The translations under genes were made by a program, and so were the position numbers. A stretch of DNA of 64,000 bases, taken from NCBI GenBank assembly GCA_000146465.1, contig CP001948.1. The stretch is one strand, 5' to 3'. Each line of letters opens with the position of its first letter. The stretch's first letter is position 1. This document shows, one piece after another, positions 7,941 through 39,869 of this stretch. The notes below the pieces were generated by a model. It was not told the origin of the DNA, did not search any database, and saw only the letters and a program-made list of their open reading frames with translations.

Positions 7941-8432
7941 ATGGAATGTCCCATGGGGAAGAGCGACTTTCTCGCAAAGTTTGAAGAGATGAAGGATGGG
8001 ACGTTTACGCCTAAGGACCAGTCCCAGAATTGGTGCCGGCATTTTGGAGTGAAGAAGGACAAGAGGCTGCACCTGTACCCCGAAGAGATGCTGTACTTGT
8101 ACGACAGAAATCCTAAAGAAGAATACTCGGTGAGAACAAAGGCATACTTCTTTATCAGAAACAACTGCTACAACCTTCTTCTCGGAGAGGACGGTAGATT
8201 TCTTCTGTACAGGAGGCATAAGAACTTCAATAGAAAGAAGGATAAGCCGATCTGCTTGATGAGATATGTACACAGGGATGAGTGGATGGAAGATTCAACC
8301 AAAGACATTGTCGATGAGTCTTTCTGTGTGCTATCTGATGATGTGTTTACCTTTCTGAGGATCCGAAAAGTCTTAAAGCTTGGGATGGACACTCCTGAAA
8401 ATTTGAGGAAATGGGATGGAGAACCCTTTTGA
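7941..8432 (+). CDS. Hypothetical protein (possible tRNA-splicing endonuclease Sen54/Sen15-like N-domain, weak)
   Basis: ATG confirmed. LHLYPEEMLYLYDR resembles the L.PEEAlyL motif of tRNA endonuclease accessory subunits. This is speculative. Confidence 0.4.
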   Translation: MECPMGKSDFLAKFEEMKDGTFTPKDQSQNWCRHFGVKKDKRLHLYPEEMLYLYDRNPKEEYSVRTKAYFFIRNNCYNLLLGEDGRFLLYRRHKNFNRKKDKPICLMRYVHRDEWMEDSTKDIVDESFCVLSDDVFTFLRIRKVLKLGMDTPENLRKWDGEPF

Positions 8433-8471
8433 ACCCCTCATCTTTTTCCCAAGACTTCTCAAGCCCTTGAA

Positions 8472-9230
8472 ATGAGTAGGAACGGACAAGGAGACCAAGG
8501 ACAACTGACAAAAACAATAATAGCCGTTGGATTCAATGACCAGAAACATCAGGAAGAAGTAAGAGGCAGGGTTGAAAAGCATTTTGATGTAAGAGAAAGC
8601 TACAAAATCCAAAACGACCATAGAGTGCTTTGCATACTCTTTTACGACGAGAGGAGGGCAAGAGAAGCGATTTCTTTCCTCAAGGAAGAGGGTATTTCAT
8701 CCTACCACATAATAAGCAAGTATGAGATTCCCAGGGATATGGACAAATGCGATGAATCCCGAAACCAAAGCACACTGCTATTTACTTTCAAGAACTTAGC
8801 GGGCTCTGTTGACGACAAAGAGTTTGGAGAGCAGGTTGGGCGATTTGGAGAAGTGAAGGACATTCGATACGTTAAGACACATCAAAGATGTGTGGAGTTC
8901 TATGACTCAAGAAGTGCAGTTGCAGCTTTCCATGGAATGAACGAGCTGAAGTTTATGGATGGAATGATGCAGGCAAAGTGGGTGTGGGATCTCTCCACAA
9001 AGACGAGATGGGAGCTTATAAGGTTAACAGACAGTATTTTGAAGGAATGTAAGTTGGAGATAAAGACGCCTACAAAGAGAGAGAGTGAGGAGAGCAAGGA
9101 AGAAATAAAGAGAAAGAAAAAAGTACAGGACAGCGACACGGCACACCCTAGAAATATATTCTTGAAAAGGTTTGATTCCTTCATTGCTTTGAATATTGAC
9201 CATATAACCGAGGGATATGTCAATGACTGA
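8472..9230 (+). CDS. RNA-binding protein with two RRM-like domains
   Basis: RNP1-like segments VLCILFYDERRAREAISFL and CVEFYDSRSAVAAFHGMN. The C-terminus is K/E-rich. Confidence 0.45.
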   Translation: MSRNGQGDQGQLTKTIIAVGFNDQKHQEEVRGRVEKHFDVRESYKIQNDHRVLCILFYDERRAREAISFLKEEGISSYHIISKYEIPRDMDKCDESRNQSTLLFTFKNLAGSVDDKEFGEQVGRFGEVKDIRYVKTHQRCVEFYDSRSAVAAFHGMNELKFMDGMMQAKWVWDLSTKTRWELIRLTDSILKECKLEIKTPTKRESEESKEEIKRKKKVQDSDTAHPRNIFLKRFDSFIALNIDHITEGYVND

Positions 9231-26904: not shown

Positions 26905-29442
26905 ATGAGAATAAATCTGCTGGCGATGTTTATGATGCCCGCAAGCAATAGAAGGGTTTTTTACGTCAACTTAAAGGATGTTAAGTCGGGTGAGGATTTG
27001 CTGAGTCAGTTGTTTGAAAAAGCCCATCATCTTCCCGACGGGTCAAGCGAGTTGCTTGAAAAAGAAGACGGCTCTTCAACGCATTTGTCCAACCTAGCAC
27101 AAGAGGTACAGGCAAAGGAAGGGGCATCTGGGTCTACAGCCTCTTCTGGACAGAAGGCACCGGCACAGCAATCGGAAAGTGGTAAGAGTGCACAAAAGAA
27201 GCAGCAGAGTGGAGGCCAGGAAAGTAAGGCACAAGGGAGCGCTAAAAAGGAAGAACAGAAGCAGCAGAAGGAGGACAAGCAACAGAAGCAACAAAAGAAA
27301 GAGGAACAGAAGCAGCAGAAGGAAGAGAAGCAAAAGCAACAGAAACAGCAGAAGGAGGAGAAGCAAAAGCAGCAGAAGGATGATAAGCAGAAGGAGCAGA
27401 AGCAGCAAAAGAAGGAGGAACAGAAGCAGCAGAAGGAAGAGAAACAAAAGCAAAAAGAAGCGGGGAACCAGAAGGAAGAAAAGCAAAAACAAAAGGAACA
27501 GAAAAAGTCTGAAAAGGAAGATGGTAAGAAGGAAACAAAAAAAGCAGATAAAGAAAGCAAGGAGACCAAAACTGCCCAAGATAAAGGTTCTAAAGACAAG
27601 ACATCCACCCAGGGAAAGACAAGCACTGATGGTGGGGAAAAAGCCAGTACAGCGAAAGCAGAAGGAAAAAAAGCTTCTGAAAAGGCAACCAGCGTCAAAT
27701 CTTCGGATGCAGAGTCTAAAGGTGCTGAATCTAAAGACAAAGGGAGTGCCTCCAGTGCTCCTTCTTCAAATGCAAGTACCTCTGGAAGTGCTTCAATAGC
27801 TTCATCTTCGGGTAGTTCTTTATCTGGAGCGGCTTCCAGCAATGTCAGCAGTGCAGTGTCTTCAAGATTATCCTCGAGTGCCATCCAATCTTCTAGTGCT
27901 GGATATTCATCTTCAATACCTCTCTTGTCCATCATGTCATCTTCCATGCTATCATCGGCCATATCGTCTTCTGTGCTGTCATCGGCCATGTCATCTTCCA
28001 TGCTATCATCGGCCATATCGTCTTCTGTGCTGTCATCGGCTATGTTGTCTTCTATGTTATCGTCCTCGATGCCGGTGTCTTCCATGTTGTCTAGTGCATC
28101 CCATTCCTCCATAGCTGATGTCTTAAAGAAGGCATCGGAGATAAACAAGGTCAAAAACCTAAGTTCTGTAGATGTCAACGATATGCTGGGGAAGTGCCAA
28201 GAATGTGAAAGGGTTGATCAAGTACTTGTCTATAAGGAAGGAAGTCAGTACAGTGATTATTCTGGAAATATAAATTTCCAGGAAAAAGATGGTAAGTTAG
28301 TTGACAGTTCAGGCTTGTTTGTTGGAAAGGATTGCGGGTGCTCAAAGGAAGAAATACCTCAAATAGGAAAAATAACTGGAACAGGGCTATATCAAGATCA
28401 GAGTGTTAATAGCATGAGCTGCCAGAAACAAGCCAATGCAATTGATAAGTTATATTCTTCTGCCAGCAATATGGCGTTGAACTCCGGAGTATCTGGAAGC
28501 AAAACCGTTTCTGCCGGAGCGTCTCAAGCTGGTGGAGCTGCAAGCGGAGCATCTAAAGCTGCTAGTGCTTCTGCCGGAGTTTCTCAAGCTGGTGGAGCTG
28601 CAAGCGGAGCATCTAAAGCTGCTAGTGCTTCTGCAGGATCCTCACAAGCTGGTGGAGCTGGAGGTGGGGCATCTAAGGCTGCTAGTGCTTCTCAGGCTGG
28701 TAACTCTCAAGGGACTCAAAGCATTCAGCCAAGCTCTTTTCAGAGTGGTGCATCAGGGAATCTTGCACAAGAGACTGGATCCAAACCTCAAATATCATCT
28801 CTTCCTACCCAAAATAATGCCGAGGAAAGCCCTGGAGTTTCGGTAGCTCAATCTATTGAAAGTAGGCCTGAAGATTTCAGCTATATACCTCCTAAGATAT
28901 CTATAAAGGCGGTCAAGGTCAAATACGGGGATACATGTGGGGATAACTCTGGACTCGTTGTTAACACAACACTCACCCAGGAACTCCCTCCGGAAAAAAC
29001 AGTAACATTACCTCCAAAAACAGTTACAAAGACAGAAAAAGTGGAGCTTCCTCCCACTACTATCATAAAGGAGTTAACTATTATTGAACCACCATGCACA
29101 GTGGAAAAAGAGGAGGTAATTGTTCAGGGATCTGAAAACATAGATGAAGAAAGAACTGTTACTCACTCCACTACAGTTGTGGAATATAAAACAGTAAAAG
29201 TTACAGCCACACGAACGATATTGCAAACAACGTCTCCGAGAGACGTAGAGGTTCCGATTTCCACTATTAGCTTTGAAACCATCGATGGTATTAATGGAGA
29301 AAGGCCCCGGGAAGATATTACGACGATTAATACAACTATAGTAGTGGAAGAACCTGAAGATATAGAATGTGAGCAGGAGTGTGAATGCTATGAAGATAAT
29401 TGCGAAAATCCCTGTGATAGGATAAAATGTGTGTCTGGTTGA
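26905..29442 (+). CDS. Secreted-type repeat-rich protein (Lys/Glu/Gln repeats, Ser-rich tract, SQAGGAASGASKAASASAG repeats, Cys-rich C-terminus). Candidate polar-tube/spore-wall-like protein
   Basis: Hydrophobic N-terminus MRINLLAMFMMPAS. K-Q-Q-K-E-E repeats at about aa 100 to 200. A Ser-rich tract with SSMLSSAISSSVLSSAM repeats. Three 20-aa Ala/Gly/Ser repeats. The C-terminal CECYEDNCENPCDRIKC. It shares the motif VLVY..G....DY.G...F....KL.D..G.F.G...........GK.T.TG..Q with the gene at 31313. Confidence 0.6.
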   Translation: MRINLLAMFMMPASNRRVFYVNLKDVKSGEDLLSQLFEKAHHLPDGSSELLEKEDGSSTHLSNLAQEVQAKEGASGSTASSGQKAPAQQSESGKSAQKKQQSGGQESKAQGSAKKEEQKQQKEDKQQKQQKKEEQKQQKEEKQKQQKQQKEEKQKQQKDDKQKEQKQQKKEEQKQQKEEKQKQKEAGNQKEEKQKQKEQKKSEKEDGKKETKKADKESKETKTAQDKGSKDKTSTQGKTSTDGGEKASTAKAEGKKASEKATSVKSSDAESKGAESKDKGSASSAPSSNASTSGSASIASSSGSSLSGAASSNVSSAVSSRLSSSAIQSSSAGYSSSIPLLSIMSSSMLSSAISSSVLSSAMSSSMLSSAISSSVLSSAMLSSMLSSSMPVSSMLSSASHSSIADVLKKASEINKVKNLSSVDVNDMLGKCQECERVDQVLVYKEGSQYSDYSGNINFQEKDGKLVDSSGLFVGKDCGCSKEEIPQIGKITGTGLYQDQSVNSMSCQKQANAIDKLYSSASNMALNSGVSGSKTVSAGASQAGGAASGASKAASASAGVSQAGGAASGASKAASASAGSSQAGGAGGGASKAASASQAGNSQGTQSIQPSSFQSGASGNLAQETGSKPQISSLPTQNNAEESPGVSVAQSIESRPEDFSYIPPKISIKAVKVKYGDTCGDNSGLVVNTTLTQELPPEKTVTLPPKTVTKTEKVELPPTTIIKELTIIEPPCTVEKEEVIVQGSENIDEERTVTHSTTVVEYKTVKVTATRTILQTTSPRDVEVPISTISFETIDGINGERPREDITTINTTIVVEEPEDIECEQECECYEDNCENPCDRIKCVSG
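27240..27520 (+). repeat. Degenerate tandem coding repeats (AAG/CAG/GAA-rich) encoding K-Q-Q-K-E-E units
   Basis: Repeated gaagagaagcaaaagcaacagaaacagcagaaggag-type units are visible in the sequence. Confidence 0.6.
27943..28050 (+). repeat. Two tandem 54-nt direct repeats encoding SSMLSSAISSSVLSSAM
   Basis: tcatcttccatgctatcatcggccatatcgtcttctgtgctgtcatcggccatg occurs twice in tandem. Confidence 0.7.
28507..28690 (+). repeat. Three tandem 60-nt near-perfect direct repeats encoding SQAGGAASGASKAASASAGV
   Basis: tctcaagctggtggagctgcaagcggagcatctaaagctgctagtgcttctgccggagtt appears twice, followed by a third slightly diverged copy. Confidence 0.75.
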
Positions 29443-29620
29443 GTTTTAACTGAATTAAATTAGGATATCTACTTTAGATATTTTGTGATTTTCTTGACAG
29501 GCCTGGAGACTTAGGAAGAAACGGTTACTCAAGTGATTGTAATCTTCAAACACAGTTTTTGATATAAAACAAGTTGAAACATACGGAATATAAAGAAAGC
29601 CAGTATGTATTACAACAAAG

Positions 29621-31174
29621 ATGATATTGGCTTTGCTTTTACTTGGGCATATTATAAGAGCCGATATATTCGATGGGGTGAACTTGGAAAAGGTTCTAAG
29701 TGAAGGCTTGAAAGGCGGAGGCAGCGGGAAGTCGGGGCCCGATAGCGCTTCTCTCTCTCTTTCTTCAAAGAAAGAAGGAATGTCCTCTGCCTCTAGTCCC
29801 GCATCCTTTTCCTCATCTATACCATCCATGAGCCAGGCCTCAAGCTCGACAGTAGCTTCGGTAAAGAAGAGTGGAGAGGAGATGCCAATTGTTATAATAA
29901 CTCAAGAGAGTCCTAAGGACAAAGGAAAAGGCAAGGGAGGAAAAGAACAGGAGGAGGAGATAGCTAGTATTGTGAAGAACGCAATAAAGGGTACCAAGTC
30001 CAATGGACTTTCAACAGAGAAAAGAGAGGAGGAGGACGGCCAAGGAGAATCTAATTACGAAGAATTTAAAGAGGAGTCAGATAAATCGAAAAGAAAAGAT
30101 AAGCCAAGCATGATCAATAATTCCTTTTCTCCCATGATGGCAAAAGCGGTTGGGAACAGCAGTGACTTAGATTCCTATTGGACAACGGTTATAGTCGATA
30201 ATAAGTTGAAGAAAGTCAAAGTAAATGTTAAGGTTATGACTGTTGTCGAGAGCATTGGGGAAGCTGCGCCATGCTCCAAAGATGGAGATGTAAAAGAGAA
30301 ATCGAAATTTTGGAGCAAGCCTGGTGAGAGCTCTAAGAGCAGAGAAATCCCTTCAACGGTCTCTGTCGCCTATAAAAAGGATGAGATGAAAACATCTCAA
30401 GATAGTAAGAGTTCTTCAAAAAGCAACAGCGATGAAAAAACAAAGAAGACTGCAGAGGCTTCAAGGTCTGTTGAGCCTGAAATAATCCCGTCCGTGATCT
30501 CATCTGGAAAAGGCACCGAATCTAAAAAAGAGTCGGAAACCTTAAGTGCATCTAAGCCTCTTTCTTCCAGTATATCTCTAAGCGTTAGTGCGTCTAGGAA
30601 GAGCAACGATAGTGAGTCGGCAAGCTCAAAATATCGAAAGTCAGCAGAGTCCGTGAAGACATCAACAACATCTACTAAGGAGAAATCATCAAGTAAAGAG
30701 ACAGAGAGTAAGAGCACACCGGGAATAAGCACAAAGGAAGACAGTAAGAAGGGGAACTCCAGTACAGTAATGTCCAAGAGCCAGTCTTTAGCAAAAACTT
30801 TTTCTTCCATAGCTACTGTGTCTCCGTCTGTTAAGAGTAAGAAGAAATCCTCGTCTTCCCAAGGCTCGGCATCCAAGGAATCCAGCTCCACCGTATCTAT
30901 CGGACAGAAGAAGTCAAAGGAAATGACCAAGGACGCCAAAAGTATTAGCGTTTCGAAATCCGAGAAGGAAGATAAGGCAGAATCAGGGAAAAAAGAAGTC
31001 AATCCCGAAATGAATGAGCTTTTCTATGTTCTTAAGAATATGCCTGGAAAAGTCAATATAAGTAAGTCAGGAGGGAAAATGTTTGTGGAAGGAAACTTTG
31101 TTGCTCCAAAGGAAGAGAAGTTGAAGGACAAGAAGTTCCAGTTCTCAGGATACATCCAGGCGGCACATGCTTGA
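29621..31174 (+). CDS. Secreted Ser/Lys-rich low-complexity protein, paralog-like member of the tandem secreted cluster
   Basis: Clear signal peptide MILALLLLGHIIRADI. About 40% S/K/E in the body. The C-terminal ...GGKMFVEGNFVAPKEEKLKDKKFQFSGYIQ resembles the shared G.F.EG....E....K..K...F..G.IQ motif of the neighbouring genes. Confidence 0.55.
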   Translation: MILALLLLGHIIRADIFDGVNLEKVLSEGLKGGGSGKSGPDSASLSLSSKKEGMSSASSPASFSSSIPSMSQASSSTVASVKKSGEEMPIVIITQESPKDKGKGKGGKEQEEEIASIVKNAIKGTKSNGLSTEKREEEDGQGESNYEEFKEESDKSKRKDKPSMINNSFSPMMAKAVGNSSDLDSYWTTVIVDNKLKKVKVNVKVMTVVESIGEAAPCSKDGDVKEKSKFWSKPGESSKSREIPSTVSVAYKKDEMKTSQDSKSSSKSNSDEKTKKTAEASRSVEPEIIPSVISSGKGTESKKESETLSASKPLSSSISLSVSASRKSNDSESASSKYRKSAESVKTSTTSTKEKSSSKETESKSTPGISTKEDSKKGNSSTVMSKSQSLAKTFSSIATVSPSVKSKKKSSSSQGSASKESSSTVSIGQKKSKEMTKDAKSISVSKSEKEDKAESGKKEVNPEMNELFYVLKNMPGKVNISKSGGKMFVEGNFVAPKEEKLKDKKFQFSGYIQAAHA

Positions 31175-31312
31175 TGAATTAAACCATTCAATTCTAATTC
31201 CCCTTAATTTACCTGAGTATTTCGGTATGAAAATTCCTGAAACACCCTGAAACAAGTTTCAGAAGAGATTTGGCCGGACTAAAAAGATTAAACCCGCCAT
31301 GTTTCTTTCTTA

Positions 31313-32254
31313 ATGAGGGCTCCTAATAGAATCGGCACGATAAGAGCTCTGTGCCTTCTTGGGATTTACAGCCATAGTGTTGCTTTATGCCAGGAAGATG
31401 AAAGCACTGTTGAGATTGTACTTCTGAGTAATGGAACCGAAAAGACAAGGCCGAGAGAGGATGATAAAAACGATATCAATACTGAAGACAAATCCAAGGC
31501 GCTTAGAAGTCTATTAACAACGTTAGTAAGCCATCTAATGGCGGGTAATAAGTTTCAGAATAGTCTTCTTAAAAGTTATGATGGAGGAGATCGTTCTGAT
31601 TCCCCAAAAGAAAGTGGAGACCGACAGACAGCCTCCCCCTCCCAGAACTCAAAAGCCAACAAATCCCCTGCTCAAGAACCAACTACAGAGATGCTGGAAA
31701 AGATAAAGAGAGTTCCAATGGGATACAGGACATTCTGTTCCTTCCTCCAGAATTTGGACCTTATTAGAGACAAGCTAAAGAACAAACCCGGAACCAGAAG
31801 AATCCGGAATGTTCTGGTTTACGAAGGGTATCACCTCACCGACTATTGGGGAAGACTGAAATTCAGAAAGGAAGGGGATAAGCTTATAGACGAAACGGGA
31901 TATTTTGAGGGAGTTAAAGTCAATACGTTTGAAGACATAATAAAGGAGGGAAAGATGACCAAAACCGGCTTCATTCAGAAAAAGGAGATAGGGGAAACAG
32001 AAGTAAACGAAAACCTGATAACCATGAAGCTTCTTCTAAATGAGATTGCCAAAGAAAAAAACACATCCATCCACGGGGTAATTAACGAGGGATGCAATAT
32101 GTCCATTGTTGAAGAGCTGGTCTTTTACGGGAATAGTCCTTCCGCTCACAACGACGAGATAGTGCATGTTTGCATATGCTCGGATTCATTCTGCAAGGAG
32201 CCATGCAAAGATATCGTTCCAATGAAGATGGAGGAGCTAGAGTTCAGGGGTTAG
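31313..32254 (+). CDS. Secreted Lys-rich, Cys-containing 313-aa protein (PTP2-like profile: signal peptide, basic, about 8 Cys). Carries the family motif shared with 26905
   Basis: Signal peptide MRAPNRIGTIRALCLLGIYSHSVALC. VLVYEGYHLTDYWGRLKFRKEGDKLIDETGYFEGVKVNTFEDIIKEGKMTKTGFIQKKE aligns to VLVYKEGSQYSDYSGNINFQEKDGKLVDSSGLFVGKDCGCSKEEIPQIGKITGTGLYQDQ in the 845-aa protein. Confidence 0.6.
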   Translation: MRAPNRIGTIRALCLLGIYSHSVALCQEDESTVEIVLLSNGTEKTRPREDDKNDINTEDKSKALRSLLTTLVSHLMAGNKFQNSLLKSYDGGDRSDSPKESGDRQTASPSQNSKANKSPAQEPTTEMLEKIKRVPMGYRTFCSFLQNLDLIRDKLKNKPGTRRIRNVLVYEGYHLTDYWGRLKFRKEGDKLIDETGYFEGVKVNTFEDIIKEGKMTKTGFIQKKEIGETEVNENLITMKLLLNEIAKEKNTSIHGVINEGCNMSIVEELVFYGNSPSAHNDEIVHVCICSDSFCKEPCKDIVPMKMEELEFRG

Positions 32255-34244: not shown

Positions 34245-35453
34245 TCAGGGGTAAGCTTGATATTTCAAAAATCCAATTTCAGGTCCAAGAGTCCTCCCAA
34301 GTTCTTCTCCAGTTCTTTTTATGCCTTCTAACACAAAGCACTCAAGTGCTCTTCCAATTACTTTAGGCATCTCATTCCGAGTCCTCTCAAACATAAATCT
34401 GATGCTTCTATGGAGAGAAACGGCCTGATCATAAGATCCTTCTTTAATGATCTTCCGGAAAGCGAAAGTTAGAATAATCTTATGCTTTAAACAGAGTCTT
34501 CCATTGAAGAAATCGTCTATAACATCATCAATAATAAATTTAGATGATTTCTGAAGAAGAGAAGAAATGGCGTCAACTTTGTATTCCTCGCATCCATCGT
34601 AATTCATAAGCACTCCAAAAGCCTCTTTACTTTTGTGCCTAAGTGTTCTTTCTGTTGAACTTTGAACCAGATCTGGAAAGCACTTGAAACTCATCTCAAC
34701 CTTTCCTGCATCCTTCTCATCAGAAATCACCTTGAGAGCCTCCTGAAGGTATTTCGGCTTCCAGTTTGTCTCAAGTACCGAGAGATTATTTTCTACTTTT
34801 CTATAAGAGTTGAAAACATCATTTGGATTGGAAAAGTTTTCCCTTTTCTCTTTTCTCATCACCGAGTCTGGCATATCATCAATCATCCTCTGTGTCTCTC
34901 CCATAGTTTCTACTCCAAATTCACATGTATTCAGCAAAACGCTTGCAACAATTGCTCCATGCTCATAGTACTTTCTGCGCCCATCACTAAAATGATTCCC
35001 AATTCCTGTTATTAAAAGACTCATCCCATTGGAATCTATATTGTGTGTCTTCAGTGCAAGTACAATGCATCTTGTAAAGAAGAAGTCGTCCTCTTCATCA
35101 AGGATGGTGGACAGAAAGCTCATTCCTAGTACCCGAAACAGGATTTCCCCATTACCTACTGTTTTTATGATGCCATAAGACAGTTCCGACTTTTGTCCTA
35201 TACAATATTTCATCAAACATTCTTCCTCAAACTGGTCGCTTCTAATCATCTTTTTCTTGTCCTCATAAAGTAAAACTTGAGATGATACATCCAAGTCATC
35301 GTAGAAGTCTAAAAACTCCAAATGTCTTTTGTTTGGGTTCCTCTTAAGATACAGATTGATAAAACCCGCTGCATCTGGACTCCTCTCAAGAATTTCCTTG
35401 ATGGAAAGAGGATAGCCCTCAGCCCTCTTGACTTCGTTTCTTAAGATGTTCAT
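34245..35453 (-). CDS. Hypothetical protein
   Basis: ATG at 35453 confirmed. Its stop codon lies 1 nt from the ThrRS start codon. No family match. Confidence 0.45.
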   Translation of the reverse strand: MNILRNEVKRAEGYPLSIKEILERSPDAAGFINLYLKRNPNKRHLEFLDFYDDLDVSSQVLLYEDKKKMIRSDQFEEECLMKYCIGQKSELSYGIIKTVGNGEILFRVLGMSFLSTILDEEDDFFFTRCIVLALKTHNIDSNGMSLLITGIGNHFSDGRRKYYEHGAIVASVLLNTCEFGVETMGETQRMIDDMPDSVMRKEKRENFSNPNDVFNSYRKVENNLSVLETNWKPKYLQEALKVISDEKDAGKVEMSFKCFPDLVQSSTERTLRHKSKEAFGVLMNYDGCEEYKVDAISSLLQKSSKFIIDDVIDDFFNGRLCLKHKIILTFAFRKIIKEGSYDQAVSLHRSIRFMFERTRNEMPKVIGRALECFVLEGIKRTGEELGRTLGPEIGFLKYQAYP

Positions 35454-35531: not shown

Positions 35532-38396
35532 TTAAACTACAGATTGTAGAGGCGTTCCTTCTCGACTTCTTGCGGCAGTGCTAAGAGATACAATCTCTAT
35601 ATCACTCACCAATGGCCCCAGCTTCTGGACAATATCGCCTATAACTTCATCATCCGAAACCAACATGCTTTCATTAGGGATTTTCTTTTCCTTTATCTTC
35701 TCTACAATCCTATCGATTTCCCGGCTCTTGCTCTTTTCTCCAACACTCATCGTTTGTGGATATGCCGAGGAAGTCGATGAACTGTAAAAAGTAGTGGTTT
35801 CTTCCTCCAGATCTGATTCCAAAAGCGGCTTCTGTGTGGTAGAACTTTCTATATTTGTTGTTGAAGAAAAGACTTCGCTTGGCTCCACAGTCTTAGTAGA
35901 AACATTATTTCCACTATATATGGCCGATTTTGATACTACAGAGGATATTCTTCCAAGGCTAGATCCATCTTCTTTTGCAAAGCTTTTCCGGGTTTCAGCA
36001 GCTTTGAGGCTCAGTAGCTCGTTTCCTATATGGGCGACCTTACTAGAAAACTCGTTCAGTTTTTCCTCAAGTCTCTTTACATGGTCTTTGACAACGGAGT
36101 TGACAGCACTAAGATGCATGCTACTATCAAACTCTCTTATTACTGTAGTTCTTACCGTATCAGTTACGGTTTTGTACTCTATGTCTTTCCTTCCGTTCCT
36201 TGAAAGTGTGAGAATTTCGTATTTGTAACTTTTCGGGTTGGTGGGTTTTGTAACTATACCATCTTCCTTCTCTATCGATGTTTTTTCCTTCATGAATTTG
36301 TTTCTTGAATTAGTTTTCTCTTTGCTAGAGAACTCCTTGAAAAGTGTGGCTACAGATGGAAGTGAATGTTCTTTGTGATTCTTCTCATTTAAAGGACCAA
36401 AGTCCGAAATCGGCGAAAGAATTGGATCGATTTCATTATCGTTTCCGCTTTCCTCCCCAGAACCTCCAGCCATCCCATCTTGATTGTAAGACAGAGAAGA
36501 AATCTCTTCTATTGTATCCTTTCTATTTGGAGTTCCAAGGTTGCCGGAAGCATTTTCAATCTCATATGCATTATCCTTCCATCTTTTATCCAAGCCTGTA
36601 GTATAAGGCATAGGACCTAGCTTTAAACGCTTTTCAGACATTAAACGAGAGGCAATGCTCTTTTCATAAGAGCTATCATCCTTGTATACTTCATACAGCT
36701 TCTTCAATAATTCAAAAGAGTCATCTTCATCTCTCTCTTTTTTTCTAATAGACAATATTGTATTCATAAGATTCTTGTACTGCTCTTCGTTCGCCACAAT
36801 CCTCTGATACAGATTATCCATCTTTTTTGCATAATCTTCATAAATATATATACTCGGCACTTCCTCTTTCTTGAATGAAGAGATAGAAAGGATATAAGGG
36901 CCTTTTGTCTCCACAGGGGGAACAGCCGAATTAACAATTGTGTAATCCTTAACTTTTGTACTTGTTTTGGTTATGGTGGTTGTGGTCTCCTTGGTTATTG
37001 TATTTCTGCTAGTGCTAGAGGAAAGTCTTTTGGTAAAGGCAGTGGAGTTTCCCCCCTTTAACATATCAAAGATGCTTCTTATTAATTCCTTGGTATGGTC
37101 GTCATAGAATGAACCTCCTGCCTCTTTTACATAAGAATCTACAGACGGCAGCCTACTTGCAGTCGTTGTACGTGTTCTCTCGACAGTAGTAGTTATTGTC
37201 TGAGGATCAACGGATGTTCTTGGCTTTGAAGCTGTAACACTGGTGCTGGAGCTTGTATTTATAGGACTACTTCCCTGTATACTGAGCAAACTCTTGATCT
37301 TCTCAAGAATTTCAATATATGCCGAACTATTTCCCACTTCTCCGAATGCTGTTTTCTCAGAACTTTTTCTTGGGTTCGTAGATAGTACTGTATCCAATTC
37401 TTGATTTTCCATCAATTCCATCTTGCTTCTTCTATTTTTCGAGTTCTCCACAAATACCGTCTTTAAAACGGTTTTTACATCATCACCCGACTCTCGATGC
37501 AAGGAGCTCCATTGCCTTGTGATCGTCCTAGTTATTAGTATGGTCTGTGTTTTAGTCTTTTTTATAGGTTCAATACGTTCCTGATCCCTAATCTTTGTGG
37601 TTGTAGTTGTAGTTGTAGTTGTTACACTAGTCGTCTTTAAGGTAACTACAGAGACAGATCTGCTAGAATCTCTAAAGGGAGTTCCACTTCCACCATTTTG
37701 GCCCTCAGAATCAGGGACAAAATCAAAGGATTCTTTGATGAAAACAGGTACAAGATTGTTTTTCTCCAGAATTATTGGCTCGGGATGGTCGGCAGGGATT
37801 CGAGATGAAATCAAAAGAGGGTCTGTTGAATTCTGGTATCCAATAGGATATTCAGATGAGTTTTTTCCACAGATCTTTTCTATCCTAGGATTTCCCAGAA
37901 CATACTCGTAAAGGGCTTTTATATCATCTCCCATTCCAAGACGTTCTTTTGTTCCATAATTTCTGATGGCCCAACTGTGCAGATCGCAGATTCTATATGT
38001 GGATCCGTTATAAACGATGGTATTGTCATCCCCATCAAAGATTTTCTGAACAGGCTTTCTCGGTATGGAATCGTCTTTTTCCAGAGTCATATTATTTGTA
38101 TTCTTTTCGATATTCTTCTTTACAAACTTGATGAAAGGCCGTTCCTCTCGTTGCAAGATCTTTTTGATTGTCATGGCTGGAGGGCTTTTTACCTCTACGG
38201 TTCCCAGAATCTTGGTCCCTTTATTTTCAGGATTGTATACTTTAAAGCAAGAATCTCGGCACCTTTGATCATCGGATCTGCAGTTGCAGGAGATTCCCGG
38301 GACTGGATTTCCTTCGCTAGCCTGAAGAATCATAGTCTGAGCAATTACATATCCAGCTATAAGAAAACATCTGAGAAACAGCTGGGTGGCAAGCAT
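35532..38396 (-). CDS. Secreted Thr/Ser-rich 954-aa protein (mucin-like, poly-Thr tract)
   Basis: Signal peptide MLATQLFLRCFLIAGYVIAQT. A TTTTTTTTTT run encoded by an (ACA ACT)n repeat near 37600-37625. Multiple T/S-rich tracts. No TM segment. Confidence 0.55.
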   Translation of the reverse strand: MLATQLFLRCFLIAGYVIAQTMILQASEGNPVPGISCNCRSDDQRCRDSCFKVYNPENKGTKILGTVEVKSPPAMTIKKILQREERPFIKFVKKNIEKNTNNMTLEKDDSIPRKPVQKIFDGDDNTIVYNGSTYRICDLHSWAIRNYGTKERLGMGDDIKALYEYVLGNPRIEKICGKNSSEYPIGYQNSTDPLLISSRIPADHPEPIILEKNNLVPVFIKESFDFVPDSEGQNGGSGTPFRDSSRSVSVVTLKTTSVTTTTTTTTTKIRDQERIEPIKKTKTQTILITRTITRQWSSLHRESGDDVKTVLKTVFVENSKNRRSKMELMENQELDTVLSTNPRKSSEKTAFGEVGNSSAYIEILEKIKSLLSIQGSSPINTSSSTSVTASKPRTSVDPQTITTTVERTRTTTASRLPSVDSYVKEAGGSFYDDHTKELIRSIFDMLKGGNSTAFTKRLSSSTSRNTITKETTTTITKTSTKVKDYTIVNSAVPPVETKGPYILSISSFKKEEVPSIYIYEDYAKKMDNLYQRIVANEEQYKNLMNTILSIRKKERDEDDSFELLKKLYEVYKDDSSYEKSIASRLMSEKRLKLGPMPYTTGLDKRWKDNAYEIENASGNLGTPNRKDTIEEISSLSYNQDGMAGGSGEESGNDNEIDPILSPISDFGPLNEKNHKEHSLPSVATLFKEFSSKEKTNSRNKFMKEKTSIEKEDGIVTKPTNPKSYKYEILTLSRNGRKDIEYKTVTDTVRTTVIREFDSSMHLSAVNSVVKDHVKRLEEKLNEFSSKVAHIGNELLSLKAAETRKSFAKEDGSSLGRISSVVSKSAIYSGNNVSTKTVEPSEVFSSTTNIESSTTQKPLLESDLEEETTTFYSSSTSSAYPQTMSVGEKSKSREIDRIVEKIKEKKIPNESMLVSDDEVIGDIVQKLGPLVSDIEIVSLSTAARSREGTPLQSVV
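37598..37626 (-). repeat. (ACAACT)n microsatellite encoding poly-Thr
   Basis: The plus strand reads ggttgtagttgtagttgtagttgtt. Confidence 0.6.
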
Positions 38397-38627
38397 ATAT
38401 ATAGTCTTTTGTTTACTCTGTTCTTCTCATGGTTTTATTTTGTTTCACATGCAATGGATACTTGCAGAAAGTAAACCATGAGTGAATAAATAAAGAAGCT
38501 TTTAATGAGTTGCATTTCTCTGAACACTCTCCTTTAAATTCGGATGGGCCATTCTTCATTGTACCGAAGTCATTGATATATAAATAAAGATAAAACATTG
38601 TTTTGGGTTCTCTATAAAAGTTCAAGT

Positions 38628-39869
38628 ATGTTTATTTATATAATAATGAGGTGTGCTCTACTATTTTTTCTTCTTAAGTACGTCTTTTCATCGGTGGAAA
38701 CTGCTTCTTCCGATCCTAAGAAGGGGGTAATGGAAAGCCCTAATCAAGAGATATCATACCGTCCAGGGGGAAGCAACGAGAAGGTTGGGGTGAAGGGAAC
38801 TCAAGTAGAATCAGATGGACTGTCTCTTCGAAGACACACCGATGAGGGAGGATTGGTTGTATTTTTGGCTCCAAATCCTTACGAAGAATGGAGTTTCTCA
38901 TACACTTTTACCAATGCAAAGCTTAGATTCCCACATATAGGTGGTGTGTATCTATGGTATACCTCCGAAATCCAGGACCAGGGAAGTTACAGAGGAGGCC
39001 ATGACCTGTTTGAGGGAATCATGGCAGGTCTTGAGTTTAGAGGATCCCAGCCCGAGATAGTCATGGCAATAAACGATGGGAAGACCAGTCTTGTGGGTTC
39101 AGAAGAAATGACTTTGTATAGAGATACAGTAAACCCGGAAAGACTTAAGGGAGTAAAAGACATCACGGTTAAGGTGATCTCCACACATAAGAATTTTAAA
39201 GTCGAACTATATGACGGAGACAGACTGCTATACGATAGCTTCAGGTATTACCGTAAAGGAACACTAGCAGGAATTGGATCTGGAAAGTACTTTAACATTA
39301 CGTCGTTCTACGACAAAGCACCTTCTGATAGCGTTTATAAGCTCAAAGAGGCACAGCTATTTGAAAGGACAGAGACAAGTGACTACGAAGTTCATAGTAT
39401 TCATGCACCGTCGGTGGACAAAACCCCAAGATCTCCAGACGGAATCATGCATGAAGATGAAGAAGTAAGACATCTTATCTCAAAGATCGAGTATCTGAAT
39501 GAGTATCTCCACCTGGTAGTCGGAGAGCCTCATAACTCATCGTTTGATAAGGTTGTTCACATTCTTTCTGAACAACTCAAAGCATTTACAAAGAAGTTTG
39601 AAGATACCATCACGCCAATAAGAAGTGTAGGAGGTTCGGAGACAAAGCTTATGAATCTGAATGAAAAAATGAATGGGATTGACATAAAACTTCAGAAGAT
39701 TCAAAAAGCATTTGCAGACTTGGATCATGTGGTAGGTTCTCTCAAAAATGACTACAGCCGAAGCTCGAACTTTCTTGTTTACATAATCCTAGGAGTTGGG
39801 GCTGTAGGACTAGGACTTATGGCAATGAAAGAGTATAATGCATTGAAGTTTAGGCAAAAGGCCCTCTGA
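38628..39869 (+). CDS. L-type (legume-like) lectin domain cargo receptor, ERGIC-53/Emp47-like type-I membrane protein
   Basis: A signal peptide is followed by a beta-sandwich region (GGLVVFLAPNPY...GGVYLWYTSE...FEGIMAGLEFRG...DGKTSLVGS), a coiled-coil stalk, and a C-terminal TM segment VYIILGVGAVGLGLMAM with a short tail. ORF-track 38598 is TTG, and the first ATG at 38628 was used. Confidence 0.5.
   Translation: MFIYIIMRCALLFFLLKYVFSSVETASSDPKKGVMESPNQEISYRPGGSNEKVGVKGTQVESDGLSLRRHTDEGGLVVFLAPNPYEEWSFSYTFTNAKLRFPHIGGVYLWYTSEIQDQGSYRGGHDLFEGIMAGLEFRGSQPEIVMAINDGKTSLVGSEEMTLYRDTVNPERLKGVKDITVKVISTHKNFKVELYDGDRLLYDSFRYYRKGTLAGIGSGKYFNITSFYDKAPSDSVYKLKEAQLFERTETSDYEVHSIHAPSVDKTPRSPDGIMHEDEEVRHLISKIEYLNEYLHLVVGEPHNSSFDKVVHILSEQLKAFTKKFEDTITPIRSVGGSETKLMNLNEKMNGIDIKLQKIQKAFADLDHVVGSLKNDYSRSSNFLVYIILGVGAVGLGLMAMKEYNALKFRQKAL

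Follow-up and report, generated by a model that had tools for sequence, protein, structure and literature searches.

Which proteins do three consecutive, repeat-rich genes of a microsporidian chromosome encode, and might these be parts of the spore invasion apparatus? The window analyzed here, a stretch of 64,000 nucleotides, derives from chromosome VII of the human parasite Encephalitozoon intestinalis ATCC 50506, as indicated by the 100% identities of genes B and C. The original prediction proposed that a tandem cluster in this window encodes a secreted family of polar-tube or spore-wall proteins resembling PTP1 and PTP2.

The gene cluster and its parts

Three consecutive open reading frames on the + strand, A (845 aa), B (517 aa) and C (313 aa), matched exactly the three same-strand genes originally predicted at 26905-29442, 29621-31174 and 31313-32254. 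Genes B and C are 100% identical to Eint_071520 and Eint_071530, and gene A was assigned to Eint_071510 by adjacency. All three are annotated as hypothetical in the database. The features are as follows (coordinates, strand, description, basis).

26905..29442, +, gene A (Eint_071510), long "A-type" member of the domain family, 845 aa (ORF; synteny)
26905..27024, +, A: short hydrophobic N-terminus MRINLLAMFMMPASN, then conserved motif RRVFYVNLKDVKSGEDLLSQLFEKA (alignment to distant A-type homologs)
27187..27549, +, A: K/Q/E array of KQQKEE type, length-polymorphic (TRF periods 57, 39 and 81 bp; 38-aa indel)
27712..28104, +, A: Ser-rich tract with SSMLSSAISSSVLSSAM repeats, Ser+Thr about 50% (Ser+Thr per 50-aa window)
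28132..28479, +, A: shared alpha/beta domain, residues 410-525 (BLASTP, hhalign, AF2 pLDDT ~93, invariant columns)
28492..28704, +, A: G/A/S/Q repeats GASQAGGAASGASKAASASA, about 3 copies (TRF 60-bp array, 3.1 copies, 90% matches)
28852..29439, +, A: conserved Thr/Val-rich C-terminal region (family alignment, Cys positions)
29356-29439, +, A: motif of the terminal Cys cluster IECEQECECYEDNCENPCDRIKCVSG (Cys positions)
29621..31174, +, gene B (Eint_071520), assigned to a separate "B-type" family, 517 aa (identity)
30173..30256, +, B: conserved central motif SYWTTVIVDNKLKKVKVNVKVMTVVESI (present in all B orthologs)
31001..31171, +, B: conserved C-terminal motif LFYVLKNMP...GGKMFVEGNF...KKFQFSGYIQ (alignments of B orthologs)
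31313..32254, +, gene C (Eint_071530), short "C-type" member of the domain family, 313 aa (identity; AF2 model)
31673..32251, +, C: conserved C-terminal domain, residues 121-313 (alignment; pLDDT 85-95; profile search)
~31790-31987, +, C: core of the block in common with A (within the C-terminal domain)
32165-32212, +, C: Cys motif VCICSDSFCKEPCK (within the C-terminal domain)

The predicted low complexity was evident in A, which contains K/E/Q-rich, Ser-rich and G/A/S repeats detected by TRF, and in B, a basic protein (pI 9.4) composed of 22% Ser and 16% Lys. The Cys-rich ends that had been ascribed to all three proteins applied to the C-terminal portions of proteins A and C only (13 Cys in A, a single Cys in B and 8 in C). 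No transmembrane segment or hydrophobic tail was found in A, B or C.

Protein A (Ser 17.8%, Pro 3.1%, pI 6.3) varies in length. In other E. intestinalis assemblies it comprises 883 aa, and alignment with the 845-aa form placed the 38-aa indel in the KQQKEE repeats. The syntenic counterparts are 901 aa in E. cuniculi, 851 or 871 aa in E. hellem and 882 aa in Ordospora. The Ser-rich tract, which encloses a TRF 27/54-bp array at 27933-28061, is a candidate region for O-glycosylation. The conserved C-terminal region was modeled by AF2 with low confidence.

Protein C (35.4 kDa; pI 6.36, or 5.74 when mature; Lys 9-10%) begins with a signal peptide; its N-terminal half is disordered and is followed by a C-terminal domain (AF2 model). 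Two of its eight Cys lie in the signal peptide and six thereafter, and an earlier recount to 13-14 Cys was erroneous. These six (C142, C261, C287, C289, C294 and C298) are invariant across the family, as are D177 Y178 W179 and T195-G200 in the family alignment.

The domain common to A and C, and the status of B

The block that A and C had been predicted to share proved genuine and was not a product of compositional bias. Composition-adjusted BLASTP aligned A and C over 104 aa (E 2e-10), and hhalign of the ortholog profiles yielded a probability of 98.5% (E 2.8e-15, 95 columns), rising to 99.8% against the wider family. Further, the AF2 models of both domains (pLDDT ~93) displayed an identical order of helices and strands, forming an alpha/beta fold with a small sheet flanked by helices. 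The domain spans approximately 100-120 aa, and its core motif in A is DYSGNINF...DGKLVDSSGLFVGKDCGC...GKITGTGLYQ. A second common element, overlooked in the original prediction, is a C-terminal CxCx(3-6)CxxPC motif, which reads CECYEDNCENPC in A and CICSDSFCKEPC in C.

When a profile of the domain was searched, 78 cluster representatives were retrieved at E<=1e-3, of which 72 also passed E<=1e-10. The named matches, ranging from Nematocida to Encephalitozoon, were all uncharacterized microsporidian proteins designated hypothetical, and belonged to genera including Ordospora, Gurleya, Hamiltosporidium, Edhazardia, Astathelohania and Nematocida. The block of about 60 aa first noticed thus defines a family. 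Its profile pattern, DYxG..F...DG.LVD.[ST]G.F.G...G..T.TG..Q, was matched by A, C and the homologs of N. displodere, Hamiltosporidium and Astathelohania. The CxCx(3-6)CxxPC motif, scored within the last 40 residues, was present in 41 of 70 family representatives, and a hydrophobic N-terminus in 41 of the 68 representatives that start with Met. No relatives of the domain were detected in Pfam (E<=1) or by sequence in the PDB. The domain therefore appears to be undescribed and specific to microsporidia. A text search for DYWG and GYFE in polar-tube proteomics of A. algerae found neither motif, and divergent homologs would escape such a string search.

The order A-B-C also occurs in E. cuniculi, E. 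hellem and Ordospora, and in three assemblies made from public sequencing runs. In Nematocida displodere, an A-type gene is followed by a B-like gene and a C-type gene, and in Hamiltosporidium a B-type gene adjoins a C-type gene. Since both domain types and the gene order are already present in N. displodere, the duplication that produced A and C is ancient, which contradicts the recent tandem duplication suggested originally. Judged by sequence, A and C are true, old paralogs, and the B gene would have stayed between them or immediately upstream of C.

Gene B had been thought to end with a related block. However, the similarity of its C-terminal block to the A/C domain was not significant by BLASTP (E 7.8 and 1.0) or hhalign (P 0.001 to 0.06, probability 1-21%), the HMM of the A/C family did not match B, and the CxCx(3-6)CxxPC motif was absent from B. 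B is thus not demonstrably a paralog of A and C and belongs to a separate family kept alongside them. The central motif of B reappears as KHWTTIYGKDGLEKVLMDVKTITIVESI in a 1150-aa protein of Hamiltosporidium, which was also matched by an HMM of the B C-terminus (E 2.7e-5). As a side observation, the B C-terminal block aligned with the A/C domain in the same register every time.

Signal peptides, expression timing and proteomics

Published SignalP-6.0 probabilities support the predicted signal peptides of B (0.9994) and C (0.984), whereas A is missing from the list, which has a cutoff of 0.05 (PMC11972355). The hydrophobic stretch at the N-terminus of A comprises only 9 residues. Distant A-type homologs possess clear signal peptides, and A may likewise be secreted.

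Expression values were taken from the supplement of a scRNA-seq study (bioRxiv 10.1101/2024.05.30.596468, published as PMC11972355), in which the table of mean expression has five columns, presumed to be P0 to P4. In this order, the values were 3.7, 3.0, 3.1, 6.6 and 26.4 for A; 0.67, 0.68, 0.67, 0.49 and 22.3 for B; and 0.50, 0.57, 0.73, 0.54 and 3.96 for C. All three genes therefore reach their maximum in P4, the late-sporoblast cluster in which PTP1-4 and the proposed PTP6 ortholog are also highest; SWP1 and EnP1 peak earlier, in P3 (PMC11972355). The fold change in P4 was 14.35 for B, the 10th most induced gene, and 3.13 for C, compared with 40.6, 29.6 and 8.0 for PTP1, PTP2 and PTP3 (PMC11972355). 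P4 also holds proteases, chitinase and other spore-maturation genes (PMC11972355), and co-expression thus fails to single out the polar tube.

The E. hellem ortholog of B, EHEL_071530, was detected by LC-MS/MS in a polar-tube preparation that had been DSP-cross-linked, washed with SDS and urea and solubilized with DTT (PMC6703431, Table S1). It is listed there among signal-peptide proteins at 55.01 kDa, in agreement with the 55.0 kDa computed for the 525-aa ortholog. The orthologs of A and C are not in this table. The DTT extract also contained PTP2, PTP3, PTP4, EnP1, which is a protein of the spore wall and anchoring disk, and SSP1, a sporoplasm-surface protein (PMC6703431, Table S1), with about 300 hypothetical proteins in total (PMC6703431). 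Given these contents, the presence of B is weak evidence for the tube itself. Further, B has a single Cys, and DTT may have liberated it only through the thiol-cleavable cross-linker.

Possible destinations of A, B and C

The original prediction likened A to PTP1 and C to a basic, Lys-rich PTP2. The PTP1/PTP2 pair indeed resembles A-B-C: both comprise adjacent same-strand genes for Cys-containing secretory proteins, both are induced in P4, and both include one member with long, putatively O-glycosylated low-complexity sequence. In addition, A carries Ser-rich repeats and C-terminal Cys, and C has about 35 kDa and 8 Cys. However, in this species PTP1 corresponds to Eint_060150 and PTP2 to Eint_060140, both located on chromosome VI (PMC10468886, Table 1), whereas A-B-C lie on chromosome VII. 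Encephalitozoon PTP1s are acidic with about 15-19 Cys, and three of four, including that of E. intestinalis, have Pro as their major residue (PMC10468886). A is Ser-rich, with 3.1% Pro and 13 Cys as against 17 in PTP1. With respect to the O-mannosylation and reductant-dependent solubility of PTP1, A displayed Ser-rich tracts only. PTP2 has a pI of about 8.6-8.8, Lys as its major residue, about 30 kDa and eight conserved Cys (PMC10468886), whereas C is acidic (pI 5.7-6.4), with about 10% Lys and 35.4 kDa. Identity of A with PTP1 and of C with PTP2 was accordingly ruled out. Moreover, the published descriptions of PTPs that were consulted do not mention the domain common to A and C, and PTP1 and PTP2 are not reported to share one. 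A reading of A as a divergent PTP1-like and of C as a divergent PTP2-like paralog is most improbable. It is also scarcely credible that C is an enzyme. Two deposited records name its ortholog "putative guanylyltransferase" or "geranyltransferase"; yet C had no Pfam match at E<=1 and no sequence relative in the PDB, and no nucleotidyl or prenyl transferase fold or sequence family was recognized in these searches. The signal peptide and six conserved Cys rather indicate an extracellular protein.

A location in the spore wall is possible, although we consider it rather unlikely. In SWP1 and SWP2 of E. intestinalis, as in SWP1a/b of E. hellem, a signal peptide is followed by a conserved Cys-containing domain and by long Ser/Gly-rich repeats, the length of which differs between paralogs and isolates. 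The cluster resembles them in its conserved Cys domain and length-variable repeats, and A, B and C might be secreted to the surface of the sporoblast and incorporated into the exospore or endospore, where their repeats would be exposed like those of SWP1 and SWP2. The Ser-rich and Gly/Ala/Ser-rich repeats of A vary (845 vs 883 aa; in E. hellem, 851 vs 871), its expression already increases in P3, the spore-wall cluster in which SWP1 and EnP1 are highest, and EnP1 occurs in the same DTT extract as the B ortholog. One deposited E. hellem genome labels the C ortholog "spore wall protein", but the same protein bears the enzyme names in other records. SWP1 (Eint_101630) peaks in P3 and has an N-terminal conserved domain, whereas expression of B and C hardly changes up to P3 and increases, along with that of the PTPs, only in P4. 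The search of Pfam revealed neither a chitin-binding domain nor any other domain associated with walls. Less probable still is another late secretory destination, such as the sporoplasm surface, the polaroplast or posterior vacuole, the lumen of the parasitophorous vacuole or, for effectors, exposure to the host. SSP1 (Eint_111090, 8.3-fold in P4) shares both the cluster and the DTT extract, C is small, soluble and folded without repeats, and variable low-complexity regions evolve rapidly, as do host-exposed proteins. However, both the folded domain and the gene order persist from Nematocida to Encephalitozoon, in parasites of very different hosts, and a core structural role would account for this better than that of a host-specific effector. 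Further, structural proteins outside the cell typically carry conserved Cys motifs and mucin-like tracts.

We tentatively favor, with slightly less than even confidence, the explanation that A, B and C are anciently linked structural proteins of the secretory pathway that are built into or onto the polar tube or attached structures. The co-peak in P4, the SignalP scores of B and C and the B ortholog in the DTT extract uphold to this extent the proposed polar-tube or spore-wall family, from which PTP1/PTP2 identity and the paralogy of B have to be removed. Co-induction with polar-tube genes and the microsporidia-wide A/C domain make the three proteins promising, though unproven, candidates for new components of the invasion apparatus. 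They would be made in the mid-to-late sporoblast, during polar-tube assembly, A and C each with one copy of the alpha/beta domain and the C-terminal four-Cys motif, and B as their unrelated basic, Ser/Lys-rich partner. The proteins would enter the ER via N-terminal signal peptides, after which the conserved cysteines would be oxidized and the Ser-rich tracts O-glycosylated. They would then become part of, or be added onto, the SDS-insoluble and DTT-releasable polymer that forms the polar tube or structures joined to it. The folded domains may provide protein-protein or protein-glycan contacts, and the repeat tracts may serve as extended, length-variable spacers.

A gene family and a single gene induced in P4 are also comparable. 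The PTP4/PTP6-like ricin-B-lectin proteins, with 12 paralogs in E. intestinalis, are small and secreted with one folded domain, are likewise co-induced in P4, and some are tied to the polar tube (PMC11972355). Their fold is a beta-trefoil, in contrast to the mixed alpha/beta fold of the A/C domain in AF2 models, and no Pfam match to a ricin-B domain was found. Eint_070340 is, like A-B-C, uncharacterized and strongly induced in P4, and has a signal peptide; unlike the candidates A, B and C, its localization to the polar tube was demonstrated by immunofluorescence (PMC11972355). Uncharacterized signal-peptide genes of P4 thus include genuine polar-tube components.

Three neighbouring genes on chromosome VII

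Three consecutive open reading frames (ORFs) on one strand were present exactly where the original prediction had placed them, and are called A, B and C here:

26905-29442, + strand: A, ORF of 845 aa
29621-31174, + strand: B, ORF of 517 aa
31313-32254, + strand: C, ORF of 313 aa

They are flanked by genes for a P5-type ATPase and a 267-aa membrane protein upstream and for threonyl-tRNA synthetase downstream. B matched Eint_071520 and C matched Eint_071530 of Encephalitozoon intestinalis ATCC 50506 with 100% identity. The window was therefore assigned to chromosome VII of this microsporidian and A, from its position next to B, to Eint_071510. In the annotation each of the three is a hypothetical protein. 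The exact 845-aa sequence of A had no identical entry in the protein collection; A of other E. intestinalis assemblies has 883 aa and differs by a 38-aa indel of KQQKEE repeats and one substitution. This length polymorphism lies near window position about 27400 (A residues about 165; compare locus L010, 3171-5822, and loci L002/L003). Further, A of E. hellem has 851 or 871 aa in two strains, and the repeats of A interrupt contigs assembled from public sequencing runs. The variable-length repeats are a possible strain-typing marker. Long antisense or alternative-frame ORFs overlapping A and B arise from the low-complexity repeats and are not genes:

27027-28178, - strand: long ORF within A
27179-27799, + strand: long ORF within A
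30397-31002, - strand: long ORF within B

Composition of the three proteins
A: 13 Cys, all in the C-terminal half; pI 6.4; Ser 17.6%, Lys 11.2%, Pro 3.1% (mature form)
B: 1 Cys; pI 9.4; Ser 22%, Lys 16%
C: 8 Cys (2 in the signal peptide, 6 invariant across the family); pI 6.4 (5.7 mature); Glu 9.6%, Lys 9.3%

The count of about 8 Cys first given for C was therefore right, and its later revision to 13-14 was mistaken. The description of C as basic and Lys-rich, like the polar tube protein PTP2, does not agree with its pI and Lys content.

A domain shared by A and C

The block common to A and C reflects true similarity, as indicated by BLASTP with composition adjustment (E = 2e-10 over 104 residues). 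Alignment of the ortholog profiles of A and C gave a probability of 98.5% (E = 2.8e-15, 95 columns), which rose to 99.8% against the enlarged family. AlphaFold2 modelled the shared region of both proteins with a pLDDT of about 93 and an identical order of elements, namely two to three helices, five short strands, a helix, two strands and a long helix; the model of the C-terminal region of A was of low confidence and uninformative. Further, A and C have a second common element, a C-terminal motif that had been overlooked (CECYEDNCENPC in A and CICSDSFCKEPC in C).

The C-terminal block of B (FVEGNFVAPKEEKLKDKKFQFSGYIQ), originally regarded as related, aligned in a constant register with the second half of the A/C domain, but never significantly (BLASTP E = 7.8 and 1.0; hhalign P = 0.001 to 0.06, probability 1-21%). 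The family HMM did not match B, even with filters off, and an N-terminal motif common to A, B and C, sought by hhalign, was not significant. Five ways of placing B as a third paralog were tried and none was significant; B is thus not demonstrably related to A and C.

A homology search with A was dominated by low-complexity candidates and returned one match. A family profile, for which the last 190 residues of C orthologs were combined with two A blocks, was searched against 1.84 billion cluster representatives. It matched 78 proteins at E<=1e-3, 72 of them at E<=1e-10. Among those looked up, the named matches were almost all uncharacterised microsporidian proteins; their sources were Ordospora, Gurleya vavrai, Hamiltosporidium, Edhazardia aedis, Astathelohania contejeani, Nematocida displodere and Nematocida sp. 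AWRm80. The HMM recognised the domain from Encephalitozoon to Nematocida (E = 1e-17 to 1e-57). Two architectures recur. In the short C-type members (52 of 70 representatives) the domain is at the C-terminus with the Cys motif at its end. In the long A-type members (11 of 70) it lies in the middle of the protein, preceded by a conserved N-terminal motif and then low-complexity tracts, and followed by a Thr/Val-rich region and lastly the Cys motif. The A/C duplication thus took place before the canonical microsporidia radiated. One match carried a non-microsporidian label, a transcriptome entry of Pompholyxophrys. This protein (P0053, EukProt, Pompholyxophrys punicea) is of the C-type, has both a signal peptide and the Cys motif, and is ascribed to a rotosphaerid amoeba; either it is a microsporidian or rozellid contaminant or the family reaches beyond Microsporidia.

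The fold of the A/C domain is confidently predicted and, as modelled, has no known relative. A Pfam scan of the three proteins and of the 267-aa membrane protein encoded upstream gave nothing at E<=1, a profile search of PDB sequences gave no match, and the best Foldseek hit to the C model had E = 1.6. Deposited orthologs bear the names 'putative guanylyltransferase', 'geranyltransferase' or 'spore wall protein', for which these comparisons gave no support. No mention of the locus tags or accessions was found in main-text literature or in the supplements of the PTP4 paper and a 2026 cross-linking mass-spectrometry preprint. Three described proteins were considered and set aside. The AlocSWP2/EnP2 family comprises different proteins (its E. 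cuniculi homolog is Q8SWG8, whereas ECU07_1560 is Q8SUV8); NcSWP8 has 189 aa and no signal peptide, and is not of the A/C family; the printed sequence of A. algerae PTP7 lacks the domain motifs and looks ricin-B-like.

Expression, secretion and likely location

Single-cell RNA sequencing of E. intestinalis resolved five parasite clusters (PMC11972355; supplement data taken from the bioRxiv version). P3 expresses SWP1 and EnP1 and was interpreted as sporonts; P4 expresses PTP1, PTP2, PTP3, PTP4 and the proposed PTP6 ortholog and was taken to represent mid-to-late sporoblasts in which the polar tube is assembled (PMC11972355).

Mean expression in five columns, presumed to be P0 / P1 / P2 / P3 / P4 (PMC11972355)
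A (Eint_071510): 3.67 / 3.03 / 3.11 / 6.62 / 26.37
B (Eint_071520): 0.67 / 0.68 / 0.67 / 0.49 / 22.27
C (Eint_071530): 0.50 / 0.57 / 0.73 / 0.54 / 3.96

B ranked 10 among P4-induced genes (14.35-fold; PMC11972355). Of the signal peptides proposed for all three proteins, those of B and C were borne out by SignalP-6.0 (0.9994 and 0.984), and A was absent from the list, which has a cutoff of 0.05 (PMC11972355). PTP3 and PTP4 scored only 0.34 and 0.15 in the same list (PMC11972355). In spores of E. hellem, a polar-tube preparation that was DSP-cross-linked, washed with SDS and urea, and solubilised with DTT contained EHEL_071530 (55.01 kDa) together with PTP2, PTP3, PTP4, EnP1 and SSP1 among the signal-peptide proteins (Han et al., 2019; PMC6703431). 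The C ortholog of E. hellem is EHEL_071540, and the gene that immediately precedes it has a 525-aa product whose computed mass is 55.0 kDa; from this match we identified EHEL_071530 as the B ortholog.

The published PTP1, PTP2, PTP3 and PTP4 of E. intestinalis are Eint_060150, Eint_060140, Eint_111330 and Eint_071050. Unlike PTP1, A is Ser-rich rather than Pro-rich, and unlike PTP2, C is acidic rather than basic and Lys-rich. Given these compositions and the separate loci of the PTPs, the reading of A as PTP1-like and C as PTP2-like fails; the broader proposal of candidate polar-tube or spore-wall proteins gained real support.

A, B and C are most likely structural proteins of the secretory pathway for the maturing spore. 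Their sequence features and the behaviour of PTPs and SWPs suggest that, after entry by the signal peptide, the proteins would form disulfide bonds, be O-glycosylated and be assembled. We tentatively favour a location at the polar tube or structures attached to it, because B and C are induced in P4, the B ortholog was detected by proteomics and the Cys motifs are conserved. A place in the spore wall is less likely, and some other late secretory destination less likely still. If A, B or C is a component of the tube or its anchoring structures, these proteins would provide conserved markers and antigens and a domain tractable for structural work; if none is, three misleading database names are still removed and the PTP1/PTP2 analogy is corrected.

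Gene order and the wider neighbourhood

The order A-B-C is retained in E. cuniculi (a 901-aa gene, ECU07_1550 and ECU07_1560), E. hellem and Ordospora colligata, and in three related assemblies from public sequencing runs. Nematocida displodere has, on one strand and in this order, an A-type gene (774 aa, HMM E = 3.6e-17), a gene for a 768-aa Lys/Ser/Asp-rich protein with a signal peptide and FWGYISS at its end, and a C-type gene (394 aa, E = 1.7e-57). In Hamiltosporidium magnivora, an 1150-aa protein encoded directly upstream of a C-type gene contains both B motifs (KHWTTIY...TITIVESI and ILKNMP...FVTG...FKFWGFISSA) and matched the HMM of the B C-terminus (E = 2.7e-5). B thus belongs to a separate family co-inherited with A and C. 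The B ortholog of O. colligata has long EKEK/KEKE repeats in place of the Ser-rich body (L004, 6253-7743, versus L005, 6205-7890). Its gene model in GCA_000803265.1 ends before the conserved C-terminal motif, which the second assembly has; the short model is probably a repeat collapse or frameshift. On a JGI metagenome contig (L009, 3805-7822, - strand, and 8001-9116, + strand), a C-type gene lies beside tandem membrane genes and not A/B; these are four multi-pass paralogs of about 300 aa, which do not resemble the 267-aa membrane protein encoded ahead of A in the window.

The new elements here are a domain family that spans the phylum and had not been described before, and its conserved gene neighbourhood; the functional class is already known. 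Known polar-tube and spore-wall proteins diverge rapidly and their orthologs are hard to find between genera, which limits comparative work on the invasion machinery. The A/C domain combines expression at the time of polar-tube assembly with a neighbourhood conserved across the phylum. More speculatively, and with considerable doubt, the A/C domain and B-type families and a nearby L-type-lectin-like membrane protein could be relics of an ancestral invasion-apparatus gene cluster pre-dating the split of Nematocida from other microsporidia, with A and C serving the polar tube or its anchoring structures as universal core subunits. A and C would then be the first invasion components traceable by sequence across the phylum, on a fold without known relative.

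Three further ORFs lie downstream of C:

34245-35453, - strand: 402-aa ORF
35532-38396, - strand: 954-aa Thr-rich ORF with a signal-peptide-like N-terminus
38598-39869, + strand: membrane protein

The membrane protein is presumably Eint_071570 (SignalP 0.9997, P4 fold change 4.3), has a sub-threshold match to Pfam Lectin_leg-like (E = 0.007), and may be a cargo receptor of the ERGIC-53/Emp47 type. It was 35% identical over 307 aa (E = 4e-56) to the product of an N. displodere gene about 2 kb downstream of A-B-C (compare L013, 11226-12410); as this homolog also lies near the cluster, its linkage is likewise ancient. The 954-aa ORF is presumably Eint_071560 (SignalP 0.9967, P4 fold change 1.67). 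It had no BLASTP similarity to a 526-aa Thr/Val-rich protein with a signal-peptide-like N-terminus that N. displodere encodes at the equivalent minus-strand position. The 402-aa ORF matched Pfam Telomere_reg-2 (Tel2-like) just above the curated cutoff (E = 2.6e-5).
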